A DNA stretch of 64,000 bases, taken from NCBI GenBank assembly GCA_965662845.1, contig CBFIJD010000007.1:15904-79903 (forward strand). Reading direction: 5' to 3'. The position numbers and the translations under genes are program-made. Shown piece by piece: positions 1-39,725 of this stretch; within the stretch, counting starts at the first letter, position 1; each line of letters begins with the position of its first letter. The DNA is from an uncultured bacterium. Its GTDB lineage: Bacteria > SAR324 > NAC60-12. Under the pieces are notes generated by a model. The model was not told the DNA's origin. It ran no database searches and saw nothing but the letters and a program-made list of their open reading frames with translations.

Positions 1-503
1 GGGCCCAAGCGGTTGTTACCCCCATCCTAGATGTGATGCAGACCATCCCGAGCTTTGTGTATCTGATTCCGGTCGTGATGCTGTTGGGCATCGGTAAAGT
101 CCCTGGCATGCTCGCTGTGGTGATCTACGCGCTTCCACCCATGATTCGACTCACCAACCTTGGGATTCGCTTAGTTGACAAGCAAGTTTTGGAAGCTGCC
201 GACGCCTTCGGCTCTAGCGCATGGCAGCGGCTGCGCCATGTTCAGATTCCGCTCGCGCTACCTAACATTTTCGCAGGCGTGAACCAGACCATCATGATGT
301 CTCTCGCGATGGTCGTCATCGCCTCGATGATCGGAGTACGTGGGCTCGGGCAACCCGTATTGAAAGCAATCTCAAACCAATATTTGGCGTTAGGGCTCTT
401 CAACGGCATGGCCATCGTCGCGCTCGCCATCATCTTTGACCGCGTTACTCAGGCTTACGGTCAGCGCCTGCAACGCCACCGCGCAGGAGGTCACAGTGTC
501 TGA
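1..503 (+). CDS. proW: Glycine betaine/proline ABC transporter permease ProW/OpuAB family, 5'-partial. The frame is open to the window start and the track ORF begins at GTG 33.
   Basis: The translation reads PILDVMQTIPSFVYLIPVVMLLGIGKVPG...QPVLKAISNQYLALG, which matches the conserved ProW C-terminal region. No stop occurs upstream in frame. The downstream proV start overlaps this gene's stop. Confidence 0.75.
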   Translation, partial: AQAVVTPILDVMQTIPSFVYLIPVVMLLGIGKVPGMLAVVIYALPPMIRLTNLGIRLVDKQVLEAADAFGSSAWQRLRHVQIPLALPNIFAGVNQTIMMSLAMVVIASMIGVRGLGQPVLKAISNQYLALGLFNGMAIVALAIIFDRVTQAYGQRLQRHRAGGHSV

Positions 504-1533
504 TGAAATTTTGATCAAAATTGAGAATCTCTACAAAGTCTTCGGAAGTCGCCCCGCGTCTGTGATGCCGCTAGTGAAGGGCGGCATCGGCAAGCAAGAG
601 CTGCTAGAGCAGCACAATCACGTCCTCGGACTCAACGACATCAACCTCGACATCCCCACCAAGCACTTGCAAGTGGTCATGGGGCTCTCTGGCTCGGGCA
701 AATCCACCCTGATTCGCCACATCAACCGTTTGATTGAGCCGACGGCTGGGAAAATTCAGGTCGGTGGTGATGACGTTCTGACCATGAACCCCAAAGAGCT
801 GCGCGAGTTCCGACGTCACCGCATCTCGATGGTGTTCCAGCGCTTCGCTCTGCTCCCGCACCGCACCGTGCTAGAGAATGTGATGTATGGGGTGGACATT
901 ATGGGAGTCCCCAAGAAGGAAGCGAAGCAGCGCGCCGAGAGGTGGATCAATCGGGTTGGACTCGCCGGCTTTGAAGATCAATATCCCGCCAAGCTCTCCG
1001 GCGGGATGCAGCAACGAGTCGGGCTCGCCCGCGCGCTCACTACCGACGCAGACATTCTGTTGATGGACGAAGCCTTCAGCGCCTTAGACCCGCTGATCCG
1101 CACCGACATGCAGAACATTCTGTTGGATCTGCAGGCAGAGCTGCATAAGACCATCGTCTTCATTACGCACGACTTAGACGAGGCGCTTAAGCTCGGAGAC
1201 CAGATCGCGATCTTGCGTGACGGCGAGGTCGTGCAACAGGGGACTGCGCAACAGATCGTGATGCGCCCCGCGGACAAGTACATCATGGACTTTGTGCGTG
1301 ACATCAACCGTGCTCGCGTCTTGCGCGTACGCGCGGTGATGGATGCAGAGGTCAAACCGGAAAATCCAAGCGGTGGCATCCCTGCACACATCTCCTTGGA
1401 GAGCGCGCTGCACACAGTCGCAGCCGCAGGCAGCGCAGGAGTCCCGGTGCTAGACAAGAACAATCAAGTCATCGGGAGCCTCAACATCGAGTCTCTCATT
1501 CAAGCGATGGTTCCCCCCGAGCGCCCTAATTAA
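496..1533 (+). CDS. proV: Glycine betaine/proline ABC transporter ATP-binding protein with a C-terminal CBS-like region
   Basis: Walker A GLSGSGKST and the ABC signature LSGGMQQRVGLARAL are present. The N-terminus VSDEILIKIENLYKVFG matches the ProV family if GTG 496 is used, and that start overlaps the proW stop at 501-503. ATG 436 is the alternative start. Confidence 0.8.
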   Translation: MSDEILIKIENLYKVFGSRPASVMPLVKGGIGKQELLEQHNHVLGLNDINLDIPTKHLQVVMGLSGSGKSTLIRHINRLIEPTAGKIQVGGDDVLTMNPKELREFRRHRISMVFQRFALLPHRTVLENVMYGVDIMGVPKKEAKQRAERWINRVGLAGFEDQYPAKLSGGMQQRVGLARALTTDADILLMDEAFSALDPLIRTDMQNILLDLQAELHKTIVFITHDLDEALKLGDQIAILRDGEVVQQGTAQQIVMRPADKYIMDFVRDINRARVLRVRAVMDAEVKPENPSGGIPAHISLESALHTVAAAGSAGVPVLDKNNQVIGSLNIESLIQAMVPPERPN

Positions 1534-1536
1534 CCC

Positions 1537-1574
1537 GGCGAGGCACGCCCGTCCTCGCTTCGTCGGTTTCTTCT
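1537..1574 (+). terminator. Weak hairpin after proV: stem GGCGAGG/CCTCGCT with a 9-nt loop, and a T-rich tract that begins 6 nt after the stem
   Basis: The inverted repeat was read directly from the sequence. The U-tract is displaced from the stem, so this is only a possible intrinsic terminator. Confidence 0.25.
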
Positions 1575-1743
1575 AGGCTACTTCCTAACAGCCTCTCGCT
1601 GTTGTTCTCCCAAGGGAGCAGCCTATTTTCTTCCCTCCTCCCAGTGGCCCACGACGGATTTGTCTGGATTCTTCGCTAGAATCCGCGTTGCCTAGCGGCC
1701 TTTGTTTTGCGGAATCTTCCATCTATCTCACTGCTACCAACGC

Positions 1744-2562
1744 ATGCCAGAACTCCCTGAAGTGGAAACGGTCGCCCGTGGGCTCCACGAGCGCATTGCC
1801 GGACACACCATCGAACGCGTCGAAGTCTTCCGCGAGAAAGTGGTGCCCTTGGGCGACACAGACGCTTTTGCGGCCAGCGTCGAAAAGCATCGTGTTCTCA
1901 GCGTCGCGCGCCGGGCGAAGTATTTGATCTTCCAGCTGGAACCCGAGCTTGTCATGCTGGGGCACCTACGCATGACGGGGAAGTTTGTCGTCACCGCTCC
2001 AGTCCCAGAGCCCGCAAAGCATGATCGTGCATGGTTCTGGCTTTCCAACGGGCAGCTGTTGATTTTTACGGATCTGCGCTGTTTCGGCACGCTGGAGCTG
2101 TTTCCTTCAGTGGCTGACATCCCCAAATTGCGACAGCTCGGCCCCGAACCCCTCTCAGAGCATTTCAACGCCGCTTATCTACAGCCGCTGCTGCAGAAGA
2201 CGCCGCGCGCGATCAAACCGCTGTTGCTAGACCAGAGGCTGGTCGCGGGGCTTGGGAACATCTACGCTTCAGAAATTTTGTTTGCCGCTGGCATACATCC
2301 CGAACGTCGCGCCAACACGCTGCAAAAACAGGAGACCGAGCAAATGATCGCCCAGACGAAGCGCATCCTCGGCCTTGCGATTGACAAGAATGGGACATCG
2401 GTCTCTGATTTCCGCCAAGTAGATGAAAAGACAGGAGAATTTCAAAATTTTCTGCAAGTGTACGACAAAGCTGAGCAGCCCTGTGTCCGCTGTCAAACGC
2501 CGCTTCAACGTATTGTCCAAGCTCAACGCAGCACCTACTTTTGTATGAGTTGTCAGTCATGA
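1744..2562 (+). CDS. mutM: Formamidopyrimidine-DNA glycosylase (Fpg/MutM)
   Basis: The N-terminus MPELPEVETVARGL is the Fpg catalytic Pro2/Glu3 motif. The C-terminal zinc finger CVRCQTPLQRIVQAQRSTYFCMSCQ is present. ATG 1744 is in frame within track ORF 1702-2562. Confidence 0.9.
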   Translation: MPELPEVETVARGLHERIAGHTIERVEVFREKVVPLGDTDAFAASVEKHRVLSVARRAKYLIFQLEPELVMLGHLRMTGKFVVTAPVPEPAKHDRAWFWLSNGQLLIFTDLRCFGTLELFPSVADIPKLRQLGPEPLSEHFNAAYLQPLLQKTPRAIKPLLLDQRLVAGLGNIYASEILFAAGIHPERRANTLQKQETEQMIAQTKRILGLAIDKNGTSVSDFRQVDEKTGEFQNFLQVYDKAEQPCVRCQTPLQRIVQAQRSTYFCMSCQS

Positions 2563-3479
2563 ACCTGCCCCTGAAACTCGGCCTGCTCTCTTGCGCTCTC
2601 CTCTTGAGTTGGGGATCTCTCAGCAGCTTCGCCACCCCTTTACCCAGAGAGCAACAATACCTTGCGCTTGTTGGCGCGCAGCCCAGCGCCTCTAGTCAGT
2701 TCCTGCAAGATTTGTCAGAAATTTGGCGCATGCCTGGCGTGAGTGACGGCTCAACCTTGCAACCTGTGACGGTGCCGACCGGCAAAGAGCGGCTGGAGCG
2801 TATGCGCAACCGGCGGGGGCATTTGGCCATTCTCAGCGGGGAAGATGCTCATCTCTTGTTGCCGAAAGCGCCTCAACTACGCGTTGTGACAGTGCTCTGG
2901 CCGAACGTTTTGCATTTGATTGGCCGCAGCCAGAAGGTCGCGGCGCTGCCGGCGGCTTCTTCTCAAACGCTCCGTGCGCCTCTGGGGGCTTTCGAGGTGG
3001 TGAGGGCCTGGGATGCTCAATCGCCTCGACCGATGTTGCAAGAGACCACTTGGTTTCAACCTAACCAGACCCTCACCGCCCTAGAAGACTTTCGAGAAGA
3101 CGTGTTCTTGTTTTGGGGGGGATATCCCCTACGCGAGTTGCGCAAGTTATTGCAATTTCCTGAATTTCAACTCTTGAGCGCGGAGCCGAACCTCCAGCGG
3201 GCGTGGCGTGAGCAGCTACCTTGGACGCGCACCCTCACGCTGCCGCCCAACACCTATCCCCAGACTCCAGAGCTGGAACTCCTCGCAGCCTTTCCCGTGT
3301 TGGTCGCTCACGAAACAGTCCCCGATGCTTTGGTGCGGTCACTGATCCGAGAAATCTTCGACCACGCCCAGTCTTCCAATCCACGCGCGATGTTCCGCAA
3401 CATGTCGCCCCAGCACAACGCGCTCTTCCGGCGCGACCTCCCCTATCACCCTGCAGCGCGCCGTGCCTTCCGCTTCTGA
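2559..3479 (+). CDS. Secreted TAXI-family (TRAP-associated) periplasmic solute-binding protein. It is an orphan: no TRAP permease is adjacent.
   Basis: The signal peptide is MNLPLKLGLLSCALLLSWGSLSSFA. The C-terminal motif is ...TYPQTPELELLAAFPVLVAHETVPDALVRSLIREIFDH...LPYHPAARRAF, ending with HPAA; I read this as matching the TAXI family's HPGA terminal motif, which is my recollection of the consensus rather than a database check. ATG 2559 overlaps the mutM stop as ATGA. Confidence 0.5.
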   Translation: MNLPLKLGLLSCALLLSWGSLSSFATPLPREQQYLALVGAQPSASSQFLQDLSEIWRMPGVSDGSTLQPVTVPTGKERLERMRNRRGHLAILSGEDAHLLLPKAPQLRVVTVLWPNVLHLIGRSQKVAALPAASSQTLRAPLGAFEVVRAWDAQSPRPMLQETTWFQPNQTLTALEDFREDVFLFWGGYPLRELRKLLQFPEFQLLSAEPNLQRAWREQLPWTRTLTLPPNTYPQTPELELLAAFPVLVAHETVPDALVRSLIREIFDHAQSSNPRAMFRNMSPQHNALFRRDLPYHPAARRAFRF

Positions 3480-3480
3480 A

Positions 3481-4461
3481 ATGAACGAACCTGTCTTCCG
3501 GCACACGTCGGTGCTTCTCCGTGAAGTGCTGGAGGCCGCCCCAACTCAGCCGCGACGCCTGTTAGATTGCACGTTAGGGGGAGCCGGACACGCACGCGCG
3601 TTGCTGGAGCACTTTCCCAACGCTCACCTGCACGGCATTGACCGTGACGCGGTGGCCGTTACCGCCGCAACCCACCGCTTGGCGAGCTTCCAAGAGCGCT
3701 GCACCTTAGAACAGGCTTCTTTTGCAGACTTGCGTGGTTTGCTCTCGGATTGGAACCTCTCATTTGACTTTGTGCTCGCCGATATCGGCATGTCGTCAGA
3801 GCAGTTAGCTGACGCCGAGCGCGGCTTCTCGTTTTTGCTGGATGGCCCGTTAGACATGCGCATGGATCCTTCCTCCCCGCTGCCCAACGCCGCGCACATC
3901 GTGAATCAATGGAGTGAGTTCGACCTGCGTCGGCTGCTCCAAGTCTATGGCGAAGAGCGCTTTGCTCCCCAAATTGCGCGGGCGATAGGGCAACGTCGAG
4001 AAAAACAAGCCTTCTCACGGACGCTGGAGTTGGCAGAGTTCGTGGAACAAATCATTCCACGACGCTTTCACAAACCCCATTTTCATCCTGCGACCTTAAC
4101 ATTTCAGGCACTCCGCATTGAGGTCAACCAAGAGCTGGCACAGTTGGAAGCGCTGCTGCGGGAAGTCCCCGCGTATCTCAACCCTGCGGGACACCTCGCC
4201 ATCATCTCGTTTCATTCGCTAGAAGATCGTCTCGTCAAGCAGACGTTCCGGCGGTGGGAGTCTCCTTGCACTTGTCCTCCTGATATGCCGCATTGTGTCT
4301 GTGGAAACCAGCCGCTCGGACGCTCGCTACAGCGCAAACCGATCACCGCCACAGAAGCAGAAATTCGTGAGAACCCTCGCAGTCGCAGCGCCCGATTGCG
4401 TGTGTTTGTGCGTAACGATCAACCTTGGAACGCGAACATCGGAGTGGGGAAGCATGGCTAA
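3481..4461 (+). CDS. rsmH: 16S rRNA (cytosine1402-N4)-methyltransferase RsmH/MraW
   Basis: Contains FRHTSVLLREVLEA, DCTLGGAGHARALLE, GIDRD and ...LAIISFHSLEDRLVK, the typical RsmH SAM-methyltransferase motifs. ATG 3481 lies 2 nt after the upstream stop. Confidence 0.85.
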   Translation: MNEPVFRHTSVLLREVLEAAPTQPRRLLDCTLGGAGHARALLEHFPNAHLHGIDRDAVAVTAATHRLASFQERCTLEQASFADLRGLLSDWNLSFDFVLADIGMSSEQLADAERGFSFLLDGPLDMRMDPSSPLPNAAHIVNQWSEFDLRRLLQVYGEERFAPQIARAIGQRREKQAFSRTLELAEFVEQIIPRRFHKPHFHPATLTFQALRIEVNQELAQLEALLREVPAYLNPAGHLAIISFHSLEDRLVKQTFRRWESPCTCPPDMPHCVCGNQPLGRSLQRKPITATEAEIRENPRSRSARLRVFVRNDQPWNANIGVGKHG

Positions 4462-5163: not shown

Positions 5164-8100
5164 TTATGGAGTGGGGACAATGCGCAAGCGGCTGTTGCCG
5201 CTGTCGTGCTTTTGCACTTGAATTTGGGTTGTCAAGCGCTCTTTTAGCGCCTCGACATGCGAGATAATTCCGATGGTCTTGCCGTCTGCTTGTAAGGTTT
5301 CCAGCGCGGAGAGCGCCGTATCCAGCGTTTCTGTGTCCAAAGTGCCAAAGCCCTCATCAATGAACAGCGTCTCAATCGGGTGGTTTCTGCGCGCTAAGTC
5401 AGAGAGACCTAAGGCCAGAGCGAGGCTCACCAAAAACGTTTCTCCTCCAGACAAGCTCTCCAACGAACGGATCGTGTCTGCTTGGTAGCGATCGAGAATC
5501 TCCATCTCCACCACCGCGTCTTCTTTTTTGCGCAGACGATAGCGGTCGGTCAGCCGACGCAGATGCTGATTCGCCAGCTGAATCAGGTGCCGCAAGGTCA
5601 GGCTCTGCGCAAAGCGTGAAAACTTCGTTCCATCGGCCGAGCCGATCAAATCTGCGACGCTGCTCCAGCGCCGGACTTCCTGTTGTTGCTGTTGCACTTC
5701 TTCTGTGAGCGCCTGCTGGCTCTGCCGCATCGCCTCGTCTTGCGTGAGCTGCTGTCGGAGGCTGCCCACGCGCTCGTCCAGCTCACTTTGACGCCCGCGC
5801 ACTTCCGCTACTTTGGCTTGCAGCCCTTCTTCGGGCTCTGTGGTGAGTTGTTGTTCCCGCAGCGCCATTTGCTGCATTTGGATGTTTCCTAAAGCATGCC
5901 GTGTGTTCGAGAGCGCTCTCTGCAACGCTTCGGATTGCTGCCGCAATGTCTGCGCCTCGTGCTCGTTCAGATAGTGTGACTCAGCCTCTTCGTAGGAGGC
6001 GTACCCCAATGCCCGCAAAGAGAGAGACACGTTCATCCGTAGATCGGCATATTCTTGTTGCCAGCGACGATGCTCGTCTTGGAGCCACCGCAGCCGTTGC
6101 TGGACTTGTCCATGTTCGGCCAGCACGTTCTCACGACGCTGACGGGCCGTTTCATAGTGCGCTTGCAGGCGTTGTTTTTGTTGCCGCAGCTCGGCTTCTA
6201 GTTGCACCGGGTCGTCATGCTCTAAGATCTGTCGACGTTCGGTTTGCAAGGCGACAACGGCAGCTTGCTGCTGGGCGAGCTCTGCTTGCAGTTGCTGCAG
6301 CGCTTCTTGGGACTGCTTGGCTTGGGACTCATGATATTGGAGCAGCGCGCGGTGCTGCGATTGGCGCTGCCACGCTTGGTCACGTTGTTGAGCCCGTTCG
6401 CGAAACTCGTGGTGCAAGGACTGTAAGGTCTCTAAGGCAGACGACAAGTCGAGGAGTTCTTCCCCGACGTGATAGTGCTGTAATTTTTCGCGCAGCTCAT
6501 CGTGGAGCGCCGCTGCTTGATCACGATGTTCATCGCGTTGTCGCTGGCATTTGGACTGTTCTTGGGACTGTTGGCGCAAGCGTTCTTGTAGCGTGGCAGA
6601 CTGGGTTTGCAATTCTTGCAGCTGTTTGCGGATGTTGTCGAGCTCCTGTTGTGCCTGCTCACGTGTTTGAAAAAGTTCATTTGCTTGCTGGAGTAAGGTC
6701 TCCAACTCTGCGTACTCGGCAAGACGCTTCTTGTGGAAAGCCTCTAGAACTTCAGCCTGATCAATTCGACACGAAAACCCTTCGGCCAATTCGGCAAACT
6801 CGGTTTGGTACTGTTGTTCTTGCTCGCTGAGCTCTGCTTCTCGCTGTTGAAGTTGCTCGCGTTGAGACTGTAGGCGGGTTTCTGCGTGGGCGTGTTGGTT
6901 TTGCTCTGCTTCCATGGCCGCGCAACGCGCTTGTAGCTGATCTACCAGGGTTGAGTCAGCTTGTTGTGGCTGCGCAATTTTCAGCACATAAGGGTGCTCT
7001 AACGAGCCACAGAGTGGGCACGGGGCTCCTGGGTGCAGCTCTCTGCGTGCCTCTTCATAGTTCTGAATCAAACGGGCTTGGTCTAGGATCCGTTGTTTGT
7101 CGTGCAGGCGTTCTCGCGTTTGCTCCAGCTGCGACTGCAAAGACTCGATCTGCTGCTTGTGACGCTCCAGTGCGACCTCGTTCTGTTTGCGATCACGCTG
7201 ATTCTCTAGCAGTTTTTGGCGAGTGGCCTGGTGCTGCGTGGTGAGCTGCTGCAAACGCTCAATGCGATGCAGCATACGCATCAGCTCTGTTTGGCGCTGT
7301 TGGCAGTCTCCCAAAGAGCGCTCTCCTAACAAATCTTTTTCGCGTTGCTGCTGTTGGGAGTTCTGCTGCTGTCGTTGGAACAGCTCCTCTGCCTGATCGG
7401 CGTGTTGACGCTGTGCCTCGTGCAGCTGTCTGTCGGTGCGCTGTAGCTCCTGTGCTAGGTCGGCCAAGCGGGCGTCAAGTTCACGAATCTGCTGTTGATG
7501 GGATCGCCACACCTGACAGCGTTCTTGCAATTGGGGCAACTTCTCATCGAGTTGCTGGTGGGCTTCTCGGTTTTGCAGCCATTGTTCGTGCTGTTGGTGC
7601 TGGGCTTCGGCGTGTTGCAGGTTGGCTTGTTCTTGCGCGATCAACTCTTGTTGCGAGGCTAGCTCTTGTTGCCGCCGCTGGACATCCTGCTGACGCTGCG
7701 CGACTTGTTCGCGTTTGGGTTGCAGCCGCACGTCTAATTCTTGGGCTTTGCGAATCTGAGGTTCGAGCCGTTGCATTTGTTCAGAGTTGGCTGTCAGCGC
7801 GGCTTCGGCTTCTCGAAATGCTTTTCCAGAAGCGGTCAAGAGAGCTTGTTGCAGCGCGAGTTGGTTCTGCAACGTGCGTCGCTCGTGCTCGCGTTGTTCG
7901 GCAGTGGACTCCAGTTTTTGCAGTTTTTTCCACTCGGGGCGCAACGGCACTAGGAGGTTGTGCCGGTCCAAGCGCTGCTGTTGCTCGTGAAAGTTCTGCA
8001 CGGCACCTTCGGCCGCTTCATAGGCGTTTTTGTGCTCCACACACTCTTGGGCGACTTTTGCGCACTGTTTCAGCCAATCCAGTTGTGCTTGCAGCGTTTC

Positions 8101-10136: not shown

Positions 10137-10592
10137 TTGTCAGATTCTTTGACTCACGTAGAAATTCACACGGATGGGGCTTGTTCTCCGAACCCTGGCA
10201 ACGGGGGCTGGGCTGCGGTTCTGCTAATGGGGGAACACCGCCGCGAAATCTCAGGAGCCGAGGCCAACACCACCAACAACCGCATGGAGTTGATCGCGGC
10301 CATCCGTGCGCTCCAAGCGCTGAAGCGCCCTTGCCAAGTCACCCTGTACACTGACTCCCAGTATCTCAAAAACGCGTTCACACAAAAGTGGCTGGAGAAC
10401 TGGCAACGCAATGGATGGCGCACAAAAGGCGGTAAGGGGAAGGTGCTCAACCAAGATTTGTGGCAGGAGCTGCTGCTGCTCACGGCAACGCACCACGTCG
10501 AGTGGAAGTGGGTAAAAGGGCACGCAGGGCACCCTGAAAACGAACGCTGCGACGAACTTGCCGTCGCCGCTCGGAAAACGTTGGTCGAGTGA
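10137..10592 (+). CDS. rnhA: Ribonuclease HI
   Basis: Contains [38 protein letters not shown] and TDSQYL...[15 protein letters not shown], consistent with the RNase H catalytic residues. The start codon is TTG 10137, with an AGGAGA Shine-Dalgarno sequence 5 nt upstream. Confidence 0.88.
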
Positions 10593-10594
10593 TG

Positions 10595-13357
10595 TCAGGA
10601 GGGGAGCACGTGCGAGGCCATCTCCTCGTGGCTCGTCACGACGCTGGCGATGGGCAAGCGAATCTCGAAGGTAGTGCCTTTGCCCACTTCGCTTTCACAA
10701 CGGATGGTGCCTTTGTGCTGCTTGAGAATGTTCAGGCTAATCGACATGCCTAAGCCGGTGCCTTTGCCCGGCGGCTTCGTTGTGAAGAACGACTCAAAAA
10801 TCTTCTCTCGCACTTCTGGAGGAATCCCGCTGCCCGTATCGGCAAACTGGACGACGACCCCGTCTGCTTCCACAAAAGTCCGCACGGTCAATTTTCGCAC
10901 AGAGCGCTCTTCCATTGCGTCGCGCGCGTTATTGCACAGGTTGGTGAAGACCTGTTCGAGCTGAATGTCGTTCCCCATCACCATGGGGAGTTCAGGGGTC
11001 AACTCACGCTGTAGCGCTGCGCTGATTTTTGTGAGTTGCGGCTCAATCAAGAGGAACGTGTTTTCCAGCAGCTGGTTGATGTTTTGCGGCTGGAGGTCGT
11101 TATTGTCACTGCGGCGACTGTAGTTACGCATGTGGTCGATAATTGCTGTGCAGCGCTGCACCATCAATTTGATGCGCTCGTAGGATTCCTCTGTGTTGAC
11201 TTCCCGCCCCAGTTTGCTGGCCATCTCTAGATTGCTGAGCGTCATGTTGATCCCACCCAACGGCGATTTGAGTTCGTGCGCAATCCCAGAGGTCATCTCG
11301 CCGACCACCGCAAGTTTTGCCGACTGCACCAACATGTTCTGGGTGTCTTGCAGCTCTTGGAGCACGTTGCGGAGATCTAAGGTCACGCGGGCCAGCTGCA
11401 GGTGAGACTGAATCCGCGCGAGCAGCTCTTGACGCGAAAACGGCTTTGTTAAGTAGTCATTGGCGCCGCAGCGGAAGCCTTCCACGATGTCTTCAGGGCG
11501 GTCTTTGGCGGTCAGCAAAATCACGGGTAAGTCGGTGGCGTTGTGCGTTTTGCGAATGTGGCTACAGACTTCATAGCCCGACAGGTGGGGCATCATCACG
11601 TCCAACAAAATCAGTTGCGGCTTTTGTCGCTCCAGCATCTCCAGCGCTTGCCTGCCGTCAATCGCTACCTGTATTCGATAGCCCTGCATGCTCAGCTGAT
11701 TCTTCAGAACTTGGCGATTGACGGGCTCATCGTCGACCACGAGGATCGTGACATCCCCGACGTCACTGAGTTCCACAGCGATCGCCTCCTCTGCGTTGTC
11801 TGCGGCAGTGCTCTTTGTGGGGAGAGAGACCGGCGTAGAGGGCTGGGCCCAGCCCTCTTCTGACATCGCTGGGGGCCCCATCGCCTCCTCGACGAGCCCC
11901 ACCCTGAGGTCGCTCTCTGTGGCCTCATGGGAAAAGGAGCGTGGCAACGTGAAGTAGAAGGAGGAGCCTTTGCCGACTTCTGACTCTACGCGCATGCTTC
12001 CCCCGTGAATTTCCACGAACTGCCGCGTTACGCTGAGCCCTAAGCCGGTGCCGCCGTACTGCCTCGACGTGGAGGCGTCTGCTTGCTGAAACTCTTCAAA
12101 AATCGACTCGAGCTTGTCGGCTGGGATGCCAATGCCGCTGTCATGCACGCCAAACTCAATCTCCTGCTCGTAAACGGTTGCGCTGAGCCGAACTTCGCCT
12201 TCTGCGGTGAACTTGACCGCGTTGCCCAACAAATTCAGTAAAATCTGCTGGATGCGGTTGTCGTCACCATCTACCAGCGGGAGCTCCTCGGGCAAGTCGT
12301 GACGCAGTGTCAGCTCTTTGCCTTCCAGCAGAGGGCGCAGCAGCGGCAGCACGGTGTTGGACAACTTACGCACATCGACGGGGCGGTGCGCGATCTCTAG
12401 GTTGCGATTCTGCAATTTGGAGAAGTCTAAGATGTCATTCACCAAGCTGGAGAGGCGCCGCCCGCTCGCGATGATCATCTGGAGGTTTTCTTTTGCTTCT
12501 GGTGTGACGGGGCCAGCCACGCCTGCGGTTAAGGATTCGGCGAGACCAATGATTCCATGCAGCGGTGTGCGCAATTCGTGAGAGGTGTTCGCCAAAAACT
12601 GACTTTTGGCGGCGCTAGCGGCTTCCGCTTGTTCCTTCGCTTCTCGCAGCGCTTCTTGGGTTGCCCGCTCTTGGGCCTGCATCGCTTGAATGTTCTCGGC
12701 CATCTGGTTGAAAGCGCGCGCCGTGTCTTGAAGCTCGTCTTTCTTTTCAGAGACGGGAATGCGGTGCGACCAGTCGCCTTCGGCAATTTTACCGGAGGCG
12801 TCCTGCAATTTGGTGAGGTGACGGGTGAGATATATGCCGAACAGCAAGGAGATGGTCGCCGACAACAGCAGCTCGACGAAAGCGATCACTAAGGTTCGGT
12901 CTCGAGCTTGAAGAATGGCAGCTTCAATTTTGGTGGTTGAGAAGCCCATCTCTACCCGCACGAGGGGAACCGCGCTCTCGTAGACGGTAGACTCGGTGTC
13001 AAAGACGCTGTCGGTCAACTCATTGAAACTCAGGCCGATGTCGCTGGAGAACGGCTTTTCGAGGCGCTGCACGTCTCCGCCCTCGGCGAGGGTTTCTCCG
13101 TGCGCAATCACGCGCGCATACACGACGCCTTCGTTGCGCAACACATCTTGCACCGCGCTCTCGAGGGTTGCGAGGTCAAATGAGAGCGCGGCGTCTTTCG
13201 TCATATTGGCGAACAGCTGGGCTGCGGTCTGGCTGCTACGCACGAGCTCCTGCTCGTGGGATGTCCGCAGCGAGTATAGGCTGTTCCAAATCAGCACAGA
13301 CAGCGTCAGCGTCTCAATCAGCGCAATACCAAGGATCGTCTTCAGTCGAAAGGACAT
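10595..13357 (-). CDS. Hybrid sensor histidine kinase (920 aa). Its architecture is TM-periplasmic-TM-HAMP-HisKA-HATPase-REC followed by a second HisKA-HATPase.
   Basis: First kinase core: H-box SHELRTPLHGI and a G-box GGTGLGLSVTRQF. Receiver domain: ILVVDDEPVNRQVL...LLDVMMP...ILLTAKD. Second kinase core: H-box AHELKSPLGGI, N-box NARDAMEE, and DTGSGIP...GKGTGLGMSIS. The whole stretch is a single ORF. Confidence 0.85.
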   Translation of the reverse strand: MSFRLKTILGIALIETLTLSVLIWNSLYSLRTSHEQELVRSSQTAAQLFANMTKDAALSFDLATLESAVQDVLRNEGVVYARVIAHGETLAEGGDVQRLEKPFSSDIGLSFNELTDSVFDTESTVYESAVPLVRVEMGFSTTKIEAAILQARDRTLVIAFVELLLSATISLLFGIYLTRHLTKLQDASGKIAEGDWSHRIPVSEKKDELQDTARAFNQMAENIQAMQAQERATQEALREAKEQAEAASAAKSQFLANTSHELRTPLHGIIGLAESLTAGVAGPVTPEAKENLQMIIASGRRLSSLVNDILDFSKLQNRNLEIAHRPVDVRKLSNTVLPLLRPLLEGKELTLRHDLPEELPLVDGDDNRIQQILLNLLGNAVKFTAEGEVRLSATVYEQEIEFGVHDSGIGIPADKLESIFEEFQQADASTSRQYGGTGLGLSVTRQFVEIHGGSMRVESEVGKGSSFYFTLPRSFSHEATESDLRVGLVEEAMGPPAMSEEGWAQPSTPVSLPTKSTAADNAEEAIAVELSDVGDVTILVVDDEPVNRQVLKNQLSMQGYRIQVAIDGRQALEMLERQKPQLILLDVMMPHLSGYEVCSHIRKTHNATDLPVILLTAKDRPEDIVEGFRCGANDYLTKPFSRQELLARIQSHLQLARVTLDLRNVLQELQDTQNMLVQSAKLAVVGEMTSGIAHELKSPLGGINMTLSNLEMASKLGREVNTEESYERIKLMVQRCTAIIDHMRNYSRRSDNNDLQPQNINQLLENTFLLIEPQLTKISAALQRELTPELPMVMGNDIQLEQVFTNLCNNARDAMEERSVRKLTVRTFVEADGVVVQFADTGSGIPPEVREKIFESFFTTKPPGKGTGLGMSISLNILKQHKGTIRCESEVGKGTTFEIRLPIASVVTSHEEMASHVLPS

Positions 13358-13366
13358 GCGAGCAAT

Positions 13367-14197
13367 CTATTTGAGGTATTTATCAAGCAAAGTGATGTTT
13401 AGTGCACGGACATCGTCCCAGTCGCGATCTTCCGCAAAGCGCAGGCCCTTCCCAAAATTGACTGCCTGCAAGACTTCTTTGCCCTCCGTGCTTTGCAGCA
13501 AGTTCCGCATCGCTTGCTGCAGTTGAGCAACATGCGCAGCAGGGATCCCTGGGCGAGCTGCGAACGCGTGGGGGGTGAACTCGGCCGTTGTCCAGAAGAC
13601 GCGCAAGTCTGCCTTCACATCCTCAGGCAGGTTGTTGAACGTGCGCAGAATGCCTCCTCCGGCAGGGAAGATCCCTTTGGCCACAGCGCGATAGACGGAG
13701 TCATGTGACGAGACATACTGGGGTGTGAAGTCAATCCCAGACTTGGTCAAGCTGGCCCGGGGCAACACACTCGCAGCGAAAGCCGCCGGCGACGGGAAGG
13801 CCAGTTTTTGGCCTTGCAGTTGCTCGATCGCCTCGACGCCCGCGTCTTTGCGCGTGACTAGAATCCCCTTGATCGTTTTGCCTTCTTCTCGGGCAAAGGC
13901 TCGATAGCCCGGCTTTTGGGAGAACACCACATAGTGATAGGGGTTCATATATGCAAAATCATATTGCTGATTGAACACACGGTCTTCAAACGTTGGAATG
14001 TTTTTCGCGGTGCTAAACTGCAGTTTGAAATCGGTCTGCTTTTCTAGCGCTTGCAGAATTGGAATCCAGAGCTTGGCGAGTCGGCTCGCCGACTGTTGTG
14101 GCACAATACCAACCGTGTAAGTCGGCTGTTGCGCCCAAAGCGTCCCCGTGCTCCAGATGAGCAGAGATATTGCTAAATAAACCCATAGTTTTCGCAT
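13367..14197 (-). CDS. Periplasmic phosphonate/sulfonate-type ABC substrate-binding protein (PhnD/SsuA-like). It is an orphan placed 9 nt upstream of the hybrid kinase.
   Basis: The signal peptide is MRKLWVYLAISLLIWSTGTLWA. YTVGIVPQQSASRL...FAYMNPYHYV...GILVTRKD is the type 2 PBP pattern of PhnD-like proteins. A GGGAGA Shine-Dalgarno sequence lies 6 nt upstream. Confidence 0.6.
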   Translation of the reverse strand: MRKLWVYLAISLLIWSTGTLWAQQPTYTVGIVPQQSASRLAKLWIPILQALEKQTDFKLQFSTAKNIPTFEDRVFNQQYDFAYMNPYHYVVFSQKPGYRAFAREEGKTIKGILVTRKDAGVEAIEQLQGQKLAFPSPAAFAASVLPRASLTKSGIDFTPQYVSSHDSVYRAVAKGIFPAGGGILRTFNNLPEDVKADLRVFWTTAEFTPHAFAARPGIPAAHVAQLQQAMRNLLQSTEGKEVLQAVNFGKGLRFAEDRDWDDVRALNITLLDKYLK

Positions 14198-14283: not shown

Positions 14284-15306
14284 TCAAGGTGTGGGCGATG
14301 GGAGTTCTTGCAGAAGTTGAGTGACTTCTGTGGGAGAGATCTCCTTCAAACAGCGATAGTGTCCAAAGCGGCAAGTCCGCGCAAAGCAAGGGGAGCAAGG
14401 CTCCTCTCGAGTGATCCAACGCGCGAGGGGATTGAGCGGCCGAGTCCATGTGGTCGAGGTCGAACCAAAAATGGCGACTTGGGGACGCTGCAAGGCGGCC
14501 ATGATGTGCATGCTGCCAGAATCGTTACTGAGGAGCCACTGAGCCCGTGAAAGAATCGCGACCAGCTGCGGTAAGTTAGAGCGACCACACCAGTTGTGGG
14601 CTCCCTCCAAATTGGCCGCAATCGACTCCCCAAGCGCTTGGTCGGTTGGGGTGCCTAAAATGAGCAATTCTAATTGAGGGTTGGCCTCTCGCAGCAGCCT
14701 CACCGTCTCATGGAAAGCCTCCGCAGGCCACTGTTTCGCGGGGCCATAGATCGCTCCTGGAGCGAGCGCGGCAAAGGGCTCTGGCAACTCTGGGAGCGCC
14801 TGTAGGTGCTGCGCGCACCACTCTTCGGTCAGAAGAAGACGCGGGAAAATGGGAGAGGGCGGCGTTTGCTCTCCCAACAAATCCAGATATTCCTCCACCA
14901 AATGACGCGAGCGCGGTTGCCAATCGCTCTGAAGAGCAGGGCGTAAGAGCGCTGAGCGCAGCTCGCCAGCATAGCCGATGCGCTCAGGGATTTGACTGCG
15001 CCATGCCATCCACGCCGACGAAAAGCTGGGAGGGAGCACATACATGCGGTCATAACCGCGCTCCCGCAGCTCAACTCCAAACCGCCCAGATTTCTGGCGA
15101 GCGCGGTTAAACGGTAAGATCTCTCCCCGATGTGGCAGAGGCAGGTTCTCAAATCCTTTTTTGACGATCAGATCCACCTGCGCCTTAGGGAACTGTTCGA
15201 TGACCGCCTGACAGAACGCGGTCGCCATCATCAAATCTCCTAGCCAATTCGGGGTTCGGATGAGGATTTTTTCGGGTGGTTGCTTCATGGGGAGAGGGGG
15301 CAACAA
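14284..15306 (-). CDS. ADP-heptose:LPS heptosyltransferase (glycosyltransferase family 9, WaaF/RfaF-like)
   Basis: Contains ILIRTPNWLGDLMMATAF...NDSGSMHIMAALQRPQVAIFGSTS, the GT9 motifs. Alternative starts are M 15306 and M 15288. Confidence 0.8.
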   Translation of the reverse strand: MLPPLPMKQPPEKILIRTPNWLGDLMMATAFCQAVIEQFPKAQVDLIVKKGFENLPLPHRGEILPFNRARQKSGRFGVELRERGYDRMYVLPPSFSSAWMAWRSQIPERIGYAGELRSALLRPALQSDWQPRSRHLVEEYLDLLGEQTPPSPIFPRLLLTEEWCAQHLQALPELPEPFAALAPGAIYGPAKQWPAEAFHETVRLLREANPQLELLILGTPTDQALGESIAANLEGAHNWCGRSNLPQLVAILSRAQWLLSNDSGSMHIMAALQRPQVAIFGSTSTTWTRPLNPLARWITREEPCSPCFARTCRFGHYRCLKEISPTEVTQLLQELPSPTP

Positions 15307-38710: not shown

Positions 38711-39725
38711 ATTTCTCTGGCCTTGGCTCGCGCTCGCGTGGCCGCTTCCCTTGCTGATTCGGTGGTTTTGGTCGGCAGAGGCTACTCCTCCAGCGGCGCT
38801 GCGTGTTCCGTTCCTGCATCGCTTGCAGCAGCTCTCTGCGGCGCAAGAGTCGCCGTTGCCACGTCGTTCGTGGGCACCATTGGCGTTCGCGTTGTTGTTG
38901 TGGACGCTCCTCGTTATCGCGGCGCTGCGTCCGCAGTGGGTAGGTGATCCCATTGAGCTGCCGGTCTCTGGGCGCAGCTTGATGTTAGCGGTCGATTTGT
39001 CAGGTAGCATGAAAGAAGAAGATTTGCAGCTTCGCGGAGACTACGTCACGCGCTTGACGGTCGTGCAGTCGGTTTTGGAGGAGTTCATTGCGCGGCGGGA
39101 AGGCGATCGCCTCGGGCTGATTTTGTTCGGTGAGCAGGCGTACTTGCAGACGCCGCTGACTTTTGATCGCAACACGATTCAGCAAATGCTGCGCGAAGCC
39201 GTGATTGGACTGGCGGGGGAACGTACGGCCATCGGGAACGCGATTGGGCTCGGGGTGAAGCGCTTGCAAGAGCTGGAAGAGTCGGAGCGCGTGCTGATCT
39301 TGTTGACGGACGGGGCAAACACGGCGGGTGACATCTCCCCAGGACAAGCAGCGCGGCTCGCGGCGCAGGCAGGCATTCGCATCTATACGATTGGTGTCGG
39401 TGCTGATGAAATGCTGGTGCGCACCTTCTTCGGGACGCAACGGGTCAATCCTTCTCGTGACCTTGATGAGCAGCTGCTACAGAGCATCGCTGTTCAAACG
39501 GGAGGCCGCTACTTCCGCGCTCGCAGCACGCAAGAGCTGGCGCAAATTTATCAACTCCTCGATGAGTTGGAACCCGTCGAACGCGACGCCGAAGTCTTTC
39601 GCCCACTGCAACCGCTCTACCTCTATCCGCTGGGGCTCGCCTTGTTGTTGAGCGCGCTGTGGGTGCTTCGCGACCTCTGGCGACAAAACATCGCTCCTCG
39701 CCTCCGCAAGCCAGCGCATGGCTGA
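38703..39725 (+). CDS. VWA-domain membrane protein, BatA-like
   Basis: There are two N-terminal TM helices, then a VWA domain with MIDAS LMLAVDLSGSMKEED...ILLTDGANTAGD...YTIGVGAD, and a C-terminal TM helix. Confidence 0.75.
   Translation: MLEFLWPWLALAWPLPLLIRWFWSAEATPPAALRVPFLHRLQQLSAAQESPLPRRSWAPLAFALLLWTLLVIAALRPQWVGDPIELPVSGRSLMLAVDLSGSMKEEDLQLRGDYVTRLTVVQSVLEEFIARREGDRLGLILFGEQAYLQTPLTFDRNTIQQMLREAVIGLAGERTAIGNAIGLGVKRLQELEESERVLILLTDGANTAGDISPGQAARLAAQAGIRIYTIGVGADEMLVRTFFGTQRVNPSRDLDEQLLQSIAVQTGGRYFRARSTQELAQIYQLLDELEPVERDAEVFRPLQPLYLYPLGLALLLSALWVLRDLWRQNIAPRLRKPAHG

Follow-up and report, generated by a model that had tools for sequence, protein, structure and literature searches.

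Organization of the Locus

Two adjacent genes on the reverse strand of the 64-kb stretch of DNA analyzed here (the window) were identified from open reading frame calls and translations. The first (13367-14197) encodes a secreted solute-binding protein (SBP) of 276 amino acids with the PF12974 fold, as judged by Pfam and AF2/Foldseek analysis, and has no transporter partner. The second (10595-13357) encodes a 920-amino acid sensor in which hydropathy, Pfam, and motif analysis place, in order, a transmembrane (TM) helix, an sCache domain, a second TM helix, a HAMP domain, a histidine kinase core (HK1), a receiver (REC), and a second kinase core (HK2). A spacer of 9 nt (13358-13366) separates the SBP stop codon from the sensor start, and the genes are co-operonic and probably translationally coupled. 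All features within the two genes are on the reverse strand.

The pair occupies a slot between housekeeping genes. The upstream boundary is waaF (heptosyltransferase II; 14284-15306, reverse strand; TIGR02195, 217.6 bits against a cutoff of 134.6), with purB and trpS beyond it. The downstream boundary is rnhA (10137-10592, forward strand; Pfam RNase_H, E = 1e-47), which is convergent to the sensor gene, ends 2 nt from its stop codon, and is followed by sbcD and sbcC. The waaF boundary is also found in the related loci L003, L087, L088, L089, and L093, and the rnhA boundary in L003, L087, and L088.

ABC genes occur at just one place in the window, 33-1533 on the forward strand, where a permease fragment and a ProV-family ATPase are encoded 9 kb from the sensor gene and on the opposite strand, with five unrelated genes between. 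With the TIGR01186 model the ATPase reaches 352 bits (cutoff 326.6), but with PhnC only 172 (cutoff 266). A first-pass annotation of this DNA had described a PhnD/SsuA-type binding protein with a signal peptide 9 nt upstream of a 920-residue sensor, with no accompanying ABC permease or ATPase. Both statements hold, and the genes beyond the sensor are rnhA, sbcD, and sbcC with no phnC/phnE-type genes. No response regulator gene is encoded within the 64-kb window. Neither a regulator gene nor arsenic genes were found near the locus, and there is no LvrB-like second gene or LvrC-like partner near the sensor.

Domain Structure of the Sensor

Hydropathy analysis places TM helix 1 at approximately residues 5-27 (13277-13345), within a long N-terminal helix (residues 3-58) in the AF2 model. 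The periplasmic region (approximately residues 28-153; 12899-13276), first read as a small loop, is in fact a folded domain of ∼125 residues with a PDC/sCache fold (pLDDT 94.5), and is the proposed docking site of the SBP. TM helix 2 (approximately residues 154-178) and the HAMP domain (residues 177-225; Pfam, E = 1e-11) follow at 12683-12898.

Core 1 comprises a DHp/HisKA domain (residues 250-317; 12407-12610) with the H-box SHELRTPL and phospho-acceptor His-260 (12578-12580), and a catalytic HATPase_c domain (residues 364-473; 11939-12268). The receiver (residues 538-650; 11408-11746; Pfam Response_reg, E = 9e-34) carries the phospho-acceptor Asp-586 (11600-11602) together with Asp-542/Asp-543, Thr-616, and Lys-638; the codons of Lys-638 and Asp-542 were checked. 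A linker collinear with LvrB α-S, and presumably helical, spans approximately residues 651-685 (11303-11407). Core 2 consists of a second HisKA stretch (approximately residues 686-750; 11108-11302) with the H-box AHELKSPL and His-694 (11276-11278), and a second HATPase_c domain (approximately residues 798-905; 10643-10966; HATPase_c_5 at 798-890). Complete N, G1, and G2 boxes are present separately in each core. The layout first proposed, a HAMP domain and two complete HisKA plus HATPase cores with a receiver between them, is thus correct, including the catalytic histidine of the second core.

In sequence, core 1 is TorS/LuxQ-like, and the sensor scores 382 with the TorS model (cutoff 676) and 312 with the LuxQ model (cutoff 1200). 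The NCBIfam LvrA model covers residues 210-902 in one stretch. In Leptospira LvrA the order is PAS-DHp-CA-REC-DHp-CA, and the aspartate and the two histidines are all present (PMC5863495). The HK-REC-HK layout is also common to the best ∼100 database matches (56-58% identity), and two HisKA and two HATPase stretches were found in all seven matches checked (one HNOBA-type and six more distant), which have differing inputs. The layout is therefore not as uncommon as had been supposed. Where labeled, the best ∼100 matches are from SAR324, Deltaproteobacteria, or unclassified MAGs.

Relation of the Two Kinase Cores

Phosphorylation of the receiver of LvrB leads to formation of an α-S coiled coil, release of the catalytic domain, and autophosphorylation of the histidine (PMC13269768). 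Residues 540-904 of the sensor align with LvrB 13-377 (E = 2e-34) with the Asp and His in register: LILLDVMMP aligns with LILSDFSLP, which contains Asp-56, and AHELKSPL aligns with AHEINNPL, which contains His-161. The spacing between Asp-586 and His-694 is 108 residues, compared with 105 in LvrB. Because the alignment runs end to end, receiver-mediated gating of one kinase by the other appears to be the best supported mechanism, at ∼25-30% identity to LvrB. Of the two mechanisms first suggested, internal phosphorelay and kinase-to-kinase gating, it is thus the second that the alignment favors.

We consider two alternatives unlikely: a His-Asp-His-Asp relay without gating, in which the second DHp domain is mainly an HPt-like station that takes the phosphoryl group back from Asp-586 and hands it on, and a core 2 that acts mainly as a phosphatase for a downstream regulator and has no autokinase activity that the receiver turns on. 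By Pfam the sensor has no HPt domain, whereas such a domain was found in 10 of the 73 partners scanned, and a histidine-containing DHp domain directly behind the receiver could in principle take phosphate by reverse transfer. The symmetric unphosphorylated state of LvrB has been proposed as a possible phosphatase form (PMC13269768). Against this, the ATP-binding domain of core 2 is complete and core 2 is kept at ∼60% identity across HNOBA-type relatives, while LvrB, the solved homologue, autophosphorylates the equivalent histidine once its receiver is phosphorylated. In L004, moreover, core 2 is the only kinase, directly behind the HAMP domain, and must therefore be a competent autokinase.

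Origin of the Sensor

In sibling genomes the waaF-rnhA slot holds an SBP gene and an sCache-HAMP-MCP chemoreceptor gene, followed by genes for an H-NOX protein and an HNOBA-HK-REC-HK kinase. The slot is the same, bounded at one end by trpS-purB-waaF and at the other by rnhA-sbcD-sbcC, and the flanks are 64-81% identical. Residues 1-229 of the window sensor are 65-69% identical to the chemoreceptors of L093 and L089, and the HNOBA kinase matches residues 218-905 at 58% identity. BLASTP and multi-way alignments locate the junction at Gln-218-Met-Ala-Glu-221 (12695-12706), with chemoreceptor-like sequence upstream and HNOBA kinase-like sequence downstream. The motif Q(M/F)AE occurs just after the HAMP domain and is common to both parent genes. 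L003 and L002 have exactly the junction seen in the window, which retains no trace of H-NOX, HNOBA, or MCPsignal sequence.

These comparisons with sibling genomes identify the window sensor as a deletion-fusion chimera, which is new here. An in-frame deletion of ∼1.9 kb in an ancestral tandem would have fused the chemoreceptor input to the neighboring kinase output, and a further deletion would have given a single-core descendant. The direction, from tandem to fused gene, is argued from parsimony rather than from a rooted phylogeny.

Alternatively, the shared modules could have come together by independent domain shuffling or horizontal transfer, the sibling tandem being a coincidence at a signaling hot spot. 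Domain shuffling is common among two-component genes. In L002 and L004 the fused gene lies elsewhere, next to crcB and at 60-63% GC, so relocation or transfer also occurred. As an account of the origin of the gene, we nevertheless find shuffling rather improbable: all pieces of the sensor have their closest full-length counterparts in the two adjacent sibling genes, in the same slot and order; their divergences match those of the flanking housekeeping genes; the crossover lies inside a tetrapeptide common to both parents; and in L088 and L087 this slot holds decay intermediates.

The Binding Protein and Its Conserved Partner

Residues 29-260 of the SBP match PF12974 (Phosphonate-bd; E = 2e-56), and residues 1-22 (14132-14197) are a predicted Sec signal peptide (MRK, a hydrophobic stretch, then LWA followed by QQ), which would place cleavage after residue 22. 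Residues 2-17 are helical in the AF2 model. The model (pLDDT 94) has a PhnD-family fold, with Foldseek matches to PtxB, ArrX, HtxB, XAC2383, and AioX. The SBP scores under the PhnD equivalog cutoff and weakly matches the NCBIfam TtrS model (E = 3e-4). By sequence its closest solved relatives are PtxB and PhnD, which are true transporter SBPs.

The ligand pocket motif of PtxB is STS-H (PMC5700983). HMMER alignment to PtxB (5o2j; 24% identity) places Ala-139-Phe-140-Ala-141 (13775-13783) at PtxB Ser-124/Thr-125/Ser-126, the oxyanion-binding triad of PtxB and PhnD, whereas PtxB His-155 is kept as His-165. The Ala-Phe-Ala sequence is invariant in 26 of 26 members of the SBP subfamily. Because of this replacement phosphonate and phosphite, both proposed as candidates in the first-pass annotation, are unlikely ligands.

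The SBP subfamily is present in at least 480 species genomes and forms 313 clusters at 50% identity (E ≤ 1e-30). In ∼76 of 80 loci, sampled from 80 species genomes, the product of the next same-strand gene is homologous at its N terminus to residues 1-175 of the sensor (E = 1e-20 to 1e-48), and in most cases a gap of ∼0-40 nt precedes that gene. Outputs vary among the 73 partners scanned: HAMP was found in 71, HATPase in 67, REC in 16, HPt in 10, GGDEF-EAL in two, and SpoIIE in two, and the partner has an MCPsignal output in L089 and L093. The SBP and the sensor N terminus co-diverge (r = 0.82, against a shuffled maximum of 0.21). In L088 the SBP gene is a pseudogene, and its partner has likewise lost the sCache-HAMP part; the L088 assembly is imperfect, with frameshifts in trpS and sbcD. 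An ABC-ATPase-like ORF lies within 6 kb in only three of the 80 loci. The SBP and the sCache-HAMP input are a conserved, transporter-less cassette with interchangeable outputs.

It is very unlikely that the main role of the SBP is in transport, for an importer (ABC or other) whose genes lie elsewhere, and that it sits beside the sensor through dual use or simple co-regulation. That possibility would fit the transport function of PtxB and PhnD, the documented existence of dual-use SBPs (PMC8050422), and the ABC-ATPase-like ORF directly upstream in one locus of the 80 (L023). It is countered by the 77 loci that have no nearby ABC ATPase, the prevalence of the cognate partner, the family-wide loss of the phosph(on)ate-binding triad, the joint decay of SBP and partner input in L088, and the ProV type and unlinked position of the ABC genes in the window. 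Parallels for dual use are chitin-binding protein with ChiS and maltose-binding protein with Tar. Quite improbable, too, is that the sCache domain itself binds the ligand, with the SBP an accessory acting as chaperone, ligand scavenger, or negative regulator.

Comparison with Known Systems

Precedents involving PhnD-family binding proteins, for which the first-pass annotation had suggested a search, are AioX/AioS, ArxX, ArrX, and XAC2383-XAC2382, all in the same Pfam family. Signaling by AioX, ArxX, and ArrX through kinases is already known, and the periplasmic domain of AioS-type kinases is listed as sCache-like (PMC5908839, PMC8050422). AioX/AioS, ArxX/ArxS, and ArrX/ArrS resemble the window pair in having a dedicated PF12974 (PhnD-fold) signaling protein and a co-transcribed membrane histidine kinase. 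ArrX and AioX rank with the solved structures closest to the SBP but share only ∼18-23% identity with it, and the AioX pocket has Cys-106 and a Ser/Ser/His/Tyr set where the SBP has Ala-Phe-Ala. In contrast to the dual-kinase output here, AioS has the usual single kinase core, and a regulator and target operon lie next to it.

XAC2383-XAC2382 (PDB 5ub3; 2018, J Biol Chem 293:10767) likewise pairs a PF12974-fold periplasmic protein with a membrane signal transducer. XAC2383 matches the SBP structurally (TM 0.72-0.73) but is marginal by sequence (profile E = 0.038, 15-16% identity) and belongs to a different subfamily; the output of that pair is GGDEF rather than HK-REC-HK. The partner of XAC2383 reportedly carries a Cache domain in the periplasm, and outputs are said to vary among the homologous pairs.

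TorT/TorS and LuxP/LuxQ resemble the window pair in that a hybrid sensor kinase is controlled by a periplasmic binding protein that has no transporter. TorT and LuxP are of a different binding-protein family from the SBP, and TorS carries an HPt domain. The likeness first drawn to these systems is only an analogy. TtrS/ThsS, which respond to tetrathionate and thiosulfate, are histidine kinases under the control of a PhnD-like sensing module in the periplasm (PMC5408782); there the domain is fused into the kinase, whereas the SBP is separate and is proposed to dock on the sCache domain.

The window sensor shares the HK-REC-HK order of LvrA but, scoring 244 bits where the cutoff is 1200, is not its orthologue, and the input of LvrA is a cytoplasmic PAS domain rather than a periplasmic SBP/sCache/HAMP module. 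The H-NOX-associated kinases of the siblings, encoded in the same slot, have the same HK1-REC-HK2 output (58-61% identity), and there too a separate gene for a small sensor protein comes first. Their input is a cytoplasmic H-NOX protein and an HNOBA N terminus, in contrast to the periplasmic SBP and TM-sCache-TM-HAMP input here.

Proposed Mechanism

We consider it fairly likely that the locus encodes a bipartite, SBP-dependent sensor with a receiver-gated kinase cascade in one polypeptide, a chimera that arose by deletion fusion. The SBP would bind a periplasmic small molecule, serve no transporter, and dock on the sCache/PDC domain. The signal would pass through TM helix 2 and the HAMP domain to core 1, which would autophosphorylate on His-260 and, as the hybrid-kinase architecture suggests, pass the phosphoryl group to Asp-586 of its own receiver. 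Phosphorylation of the receiver would zip the α-S helices into a coiled coil and free the second catalytic domain, as in LvrB. Core 2 would then autophosphorylate His-694 and, by homology, phosphorylate a response regulator encoded elsewhere. The observations of the first-pass annotation are confirmed, and its interpretation is partly supported. Our literature search found no experimental study of any member of this SBP/sensor subfamily.

Both halves of the system are of known kinds. What sets it apart is the in-frame deletion that would have fused a chemoreceptor input to a kinase output. The signal of a periplasmic solute would thereby be fed into the pathway that in the siblings is driven by an H-NOX gas sensor.

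Organization of the SBP and sensor genes

The secreted binding protein (SBP, 276 aa) is encoded at 13367-14197 on the minus strand and its neighbor, a 920-aa sensor kinase, at 10595-13357 on the same strand; the ORFs and the sequence place the two genes 9 nt apart. The surroundings are housekeeping in character, with waaF, purB, and trpS upstream of the pair, the convergent rnhA followed by sbcD and sbcC downstream, and housekeeping genes in all six closest ORFs on either side. The sensor stop codon and the end of rnhA are 2 nt apart (10592-10597), which leaves no room for a terminator between them. The corresponding gap is ∼115 nt in L003, a related SBP-type locus, and several extra genes, including one for a WD40/Big_5/RCC1-like protein, lie at the downstream edge of the slot between waaF and rnhA in L087 and L088, two relatives with a different kinase there; this edge thus varies among relatives too. 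A promoter and terminator scan gave nothing exceeding shuffled expectation, and searches of the window for Rfam families and tRNA genes had no matches. A gene conserved upstream of rplU-rpmA-trpS in the window, L003, and L087 (18746-20035, minus strand) encodes a 429-aa protein whose sole domain match is a weak one to the zinc ribbon Zn_ribbon_4 at its N terminus. An AT skew of -0.32 at 6001-8000, across the minus-strand sbcC coding region, probably reflects sbcC coding composition.

No phnC/phnE-type ATPase and permease genes stand beside the SBP gene. Specifically, the place immediately beyond the sensor, where such genes would have spoken against the first-pass annotation, is taken by rnhA, sbcD, and sbcC. 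The only ABC genes of the window, a permease fragment and a ProV-family ATPase at 33-1533 on the plus strand, were rejected as partners of the SBP on account of their family, their opposite strand, and their distance of 9 kb; the ATPase exceeds the TIGR01186 cutoff and falls under the PhnC cutoff. Behind them come fpg, a TAXI-like gene, rsmH, and sbcCD. The stretch 33-4461 (plus strand) oddly combines a compatible-solute-type transporter with housekeeping genes: it holds the truncated BPD_transp_1 permease, the ATPase, fpg, and rsmH, and between the last two an ORF that weakly matches TAXI/NMT1-like binding proteins, under cutoff.

Architecture of the sensor

Hydropathy analysis of the sensor gives two membrane segments (∼5-27 and 154-178), and Pfam assigns a HAMP domain (177-225), two HisKA and two HATPase_c domains, and a receiver (538-650). 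The region between the membrane segments had been taken for a small periplasmic loop. Nevertheless, the AlphaFold2 model of residues 1-235 (pLDDT 94.5) predicts a folded sensor domain of the sCache/PDC type, in which two helices, a long N-terminal one and a short one, precede four strands; a further long helix then extends across the second membrane segment into HAMP.

Motif scans located an H-box in each kinase core, SHELRTPL with His-260 in core 1 (HK1) and AHELKSPL with His-694 in core 2 (HK2), and each core has N, G1, and G2 boxes of its own. The catalytic histidine of core 2, on which the first-pass annotation depended, is therefore present, and the possibility that one core is degenerate was discarded. 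With the receiver (Asp-542/Asp-543, acceptor Asp-586, Thr-616, and Lys-638) between two DHp and two CA domains, the sensor is an HK-REC-HK protein. Pfam matched no Hpt domain in it, such as ends the tripartite TorS/BarA/ArcB-type kinases, and it scored under all of the equivalog cutoffs for that type.

Residues 540-904 can be aligned along their whole length with residues 13-377 of Leptospira LvrB (REC-DHp-CA; PDB 8vc9), with an E value of 2e-34. LILLDVMMP lies opposite LILSDFSLP of LvrB (Asp-56) and AHELKSPL opposite AHEINNPL (His-161), and the Asp-to-His spacing is 108 residues in the sensor versus 105 in LvrB; the collinear alignment joins the receiver directly to DHp-CA via a putative helical alpha-S linker. 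[quoted passage not shown] LvrA itself is PAS-DHp-CA-REC-DHp-CA with His-218, Asp-524, and His-616 (PMC5863495). The NCBIfam LvrA model (NF047465) aligns with sensor residues 210-902 in one stretch but at 244 bits versus a cutoff of 1200, so that LvrA has the same architecture and is a different protein family member.

By homology, HK1 would transfer phosphate from His-260 to Asp-586, and the receiver would gate HK2 (His-694), which would then signal to an unlinked regulator. Apart from the receiver of the sensor itself, the 64-kb window contains no receiver ORF that could be a cognate response regulator. Only one further ORF of two-component type was detected in the window; it lies at 39718-40674 on the plus strand and encodes 318 aa with a HisKA match (E value of 2e-8) and similarity to core 2 (E value of 7e-17). 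It has no HATPase_c match at the threshold used, and its product is possibly a cytoplasmic histidine kinase, either short or degenerate.

The HK-REC-HK layout is not rare in the database, contrary to the initial impression. The top ∼100 matches are proteins of ∼826 aa with the order HNOBA-HK-REC-HK and 56-58% identity over both cores, and all seven matches that were checked (one HNOBA-type and six more distant) have two HisKA and two HATPase stretches. The inputs of these seven are HNOBA, sCache_3_3, dCache_3, dCache_1, Y_Y_Y, 7TMR-DISM, or HAMP-only.

Fold and pocket of the SBP

The SBP belongs to the Phosphonate-bd fold family PF12974 (191 bits; cutoff 27), and its AlphaFold2 model (pLDDT 94) matches PtxB, ArrX, HtxB, XAC2383, and AioX with TM scores of 0.65-0.78 (0.70-0.78 for PtxB, ArrX, and HtxB). 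The solved proteins nearest in sequence are PtxB and ArrX, at ∼22-24% identity. XAC2383 (PDB 5ub3) is matched structurally, and its sequence match to the family profile is marginal (E value of 0.038), which sets the subfamily of the SBP apart. Neither the PhnD equivalog TIGR03431 (70.6 bits; cutoff 261.1) nor TIGR01098 (90.1 bits; cutoff 112) was reached.

The ligand site of PtxB consists of an STS-H motif (Ser-124, Thr-125, Ser-126, and His-155) with Tyr-94 and Asp-16 (PMC5700983). In the HMMER alignment only the histidine of the oxyanion motif is retained, as His-165; Ser-124/Thr-125/Ser-126 are replaced by Ala-139/Phe-140/Ala-141, Tyr-94 by Ile-109, and Asp-16 by Gln-34. The A-F-A triplet is invariant in all 26 aligned members of the subfamily, as are a distinct set of polar residues (Gln-34, Gln-35, Tyr-83, Asn-85, Tyr-87, His-88, Tyr-98, Ser-164, His-165, Asp-166, Tyr-169, Arg-185, Thr-186, and His-210). 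The SBP is PhnD-like in fold and not in pocket. Because of the invariant A-F-A and this polar set, its ligand is probably neither phosphonate nor phosphite, and the earlier suggestion of these two needs correction. The subfamily may sense a ligand class new for PhnD-fold proteins.

An SBP and sCache-HAMP input cassette

One genome per species was scanned for the SBP subfamily, and at least 480 genomes were positive; among representatives clustered at 50% identity, all of which were searched, 313 clusters matched at E ≤ 1e-30. The hosts include Vibrio, Neptuniibacter, Marinomonas, Roseibium, sulfur-oxidizing symbionts, and metagenome-assembled genomes that are "SAR324-like" solely by the names attached to some relatives. 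We found no literature on any member of the SBP/sensor subfamily.

Locus statistics were taken from the best 80 loci in these genomes. In ∼76 of the 80 the SBP gene is followed by a same-strand gene, usually starting ∼0-40 nt past the SBP stop codon, whose product is homologous to the sensor N terminus over its first ∼175 residues (E values of 1e-20 to 1e-48), always at positions 1-175. Beyond that point the partners diverge: among 73 of them we counted HAMP in 71, HATPase in 67, PAS in ∼20, REC in 16, HPt in 10, and, more rarely, GGDEF-EAL (2) or SpoIIE (2), and the partners in L089 and L093 have a chemoreceptor output. Two kinase cores were found in none of the partners at the 80 loci. Pairwise divergence of the SBP correlates with that of the partner N terminus with r = 0.82, a value that includes shared phylogeny, versus a label-shuffled maximum of 0.21. 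This shows that the two are inherited as a unit. SBP and sCache-HAMP together form a conserved input cassette whose outputs are interchangeable. Vibrio coralliilyticus and Neptuniibacter are tractable relatives in which this cassette is present.

An ABC-ATPase-like ORF lies within 6 kb at only 3 of the 80 loci. A secreted SBP conserved without a transporter beside a Cache/PDC membrane transducer is the arrangement of a bipartite sensor, and this pairing, together with the co-divergence, is the pattern expected of a dedicated signaling protein and not of a transport protein; we read the SBP as such.

A separate receiver-containing ORF, often of ∼425-434 aa, occurs within 1.5 kb at 37 of 76 related loci; the lineage of the window has no neighboring regulator. 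In Vibrio hepatarius (L005:7001-14485) the cassette, there with a HAMP-kinase, adjoins genes for REC-HD_5, a second kinase, CheX, REC, and REC-HDOD proteins, an arrangement repeated in L006; L007 is from the same species. The 434-aa regulator of L005 is REC plus HD_5, the domain scan having covered the L005/L006 protein only. If the other ∼425-434-aa neighbors are likewise of the HD-GYP type, the common output of the cassette would be c-di-GMP turnover.

Probable origin of the sensor by deletion fusion

HNOBA-type kinases occupy the same chromosomal slot as the pair in the window. In L087 and L088 the gene order is rplU-rpmA-trpS-purB-waaF, then an H-NOX gene and the HNOBA-HK-REC-HK gene, and then, after further genes, rnhA-sbcD-sbcC. 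The flanking proteins of these HNOBA-type relatives are about as similar to those of the window as are their counterparts in the SBP-type L003 (TrpS, 76 versus 78% identity; PurB, 74 versus 72%; WaaF, 67 versus 66%; RnhA, 81 versus 79%; SbcD, 64 versus 68%).

Both inputs stand in tandem on the sibling contigs L089-L093, where waaF is followed by an intact SBP gene (66-70% identity to that of the window), a chemoreceptor gene, the H-NOX gene, and the start of the HNOBA kinase gene. The chemoreceptor is a 503-aa HAMP-MCPsignal protein whose residues 1-229 are 65-69% identical to residues 1-229 of the sensor. The sensor tracks the chemoreceptor until AFNQMAE (215-221) and from there the HNOBA kinase (VQFAEELQ... 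in that protein). The crossover lies within a shared Q(M/F)AE tetrapeptide and is identical in the window, L003, and the further relative L002, a pattern in favor of one event only. In the numbering of L093, the missing segment begins at codon 222 of the chemoreceptor gene, spans the H-NOX gene, and ends at codon 152 of the HNOBA kinase gene; it measures ∼1.9 kb, and no trace of it was found in the window or L003. The comparison is unrooted, and the passage from tandem to fused is the parsimonious direction because, for the reverse, three gene parts would have to enter the middle of a gene in frame. The most parsimonious reading of these sequences is that the sensor arose by deletion fusion, caught with its INTERMEDIATES.

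A further reduction is seen in L004, a close relative with a single-core sensor of 486 aa. This protein keeps the segment downstream of the fusion junction (ELQQLQVQQKATEDDLRRA), after which its sequence resumes within the alpha-S helix of core 2 (YDELRNAQSMLVQSAKL...). Since the HNOBA-derived segment is kept, it descends from the dual-core form, apparently by a second in-frame deletion of ∼420 residues that removed HK1-REC and would leave HAMP to drive core 2 directly. L004 also suggests that core 2, placed behind HAMP, can work as an autokinase on its own. The states would then run from the SBP and sCache-HAMP chemoreceptor beside H-NOX and HNOBA-HK-REC-HK (state A) to the window (state D) and on to L004, and we lean towards reading the locus across sibling genomes as a stepwise record of new sensor kinases made by in-frame deletions at signaling-helix joints.

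Decayed genes in the same slot

L088 carries an SBP pseudogene (L088:3536-3991) between waaF and the H-NOX cassette, with 58% identity to residues 2-155 of the SBP of the window, at least six in-frame stop codons, and a truncation near residue 155. The L088 assembly is imperfect, with trpS and sbcD frameshifted; the SBP defects are in-frame stops, and homology continues in the same frame. The pseudogene resembles a relic of the SBP-type input, left in a genome whose present input is H-NOX. The sCache-HAMP part of the chemoreceptor has been lost from L088, and only the last 35 chemoreceptor codons are left in L087.

Two other oddities were seen in these relatives. At L088:4070-5373 a 75-aa ORF duplicates the HNOBA kinase N terminus (79% to residues 3-65 of P0043) and overlaps a 364-aa ORF of a different frame, which has a pair of predicted membrane segments and an MCPsignal part (83% to residues 233-503 of the L093 chemoreceptor); this could be a frameshifted HNOBA-MCP hybrid, that is, an H-NOX-coupled chemoreceptor, or debris. 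In L087 the H-NOX gene that precedes the HNOBA kinase gene (L087:5030-5590) contains an in-frame TAG (PSFQC*ELD, against PSFQCQELD in L088), and its called product has 120 aa only; the gene is either a pseudogene or a strain or assembly variant.

Discussion

Comparative evidence supports the proposal of a binding-protein-dependent sensor with a putative internal kinase-to-kinase step. The TorT/TorS and LuxP/LuxQ arrangements to which it was first likened hold as functional analogies only, and there are precedents within PF12974 itself. The XAC2383-XAC2382 pair is reportedly a signaling pair of this family. AioX/AioS, ArxX, and ArrX are others (PMC5908839; review PMC8050422). AioX/AioS and XAC2383/XAC2382 resemble the system of the window on the input side, and LvrA/LvrB on the output side; the system is under all cutoffs for these and thus not an orthologue of any. 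The linkage to aioSR/arrSR and arsenic oxidoreductase genes that marks the arsenic-type systems is likewise lacking around the pair: the window has no regulator, and the six closest ORFs on each side of the pair are housekeeping genes.

PhnD-fold proteins that signal and receiver-gated second kinases are already known, and each half of the system is ordinary. What is added is a large unannotated SBP/sCache-HAMP subfamily, a likely mis-annotation of its SBP, and an unusually clear deletion-fusion series. The sCache-HAMP module occurs in kinases and hybrid kinases as well as in chemoreceptors, c-di-GMP enzymes, and PP2C phosphatases. Because the ligand of the SBP is probably not phosph(on)ate, the automatically assigned label "phosphonate ABC transporter substrate-binding protein" would mislead phosphorus-cycle inferences from marine metagenomes. 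A membrane-anchored HK-REC-HK protein with a defined extracellular input could complement LvrA/LvrB on the question of how one kinase gates another.

The locus offers a sequence-resolved case of the natural birth of a sensor, apparently by deletion fusion of adjacent signaling genes, with parental, decayed, and further-reduced states in relatives, and its junctions, already tested by evolution, would serve protein engineers who rewire sensors. Should all three products be functional, the HAMP-DHp1, HNOBA-DHp1, REC-alpha-S-DHp2, and HAMP-DHp2 joints would be interchangeable, and a periplasmic chemoeffector signal would have been diverted from chemotaxis to a pathway that a gas sensor otherwise controls.
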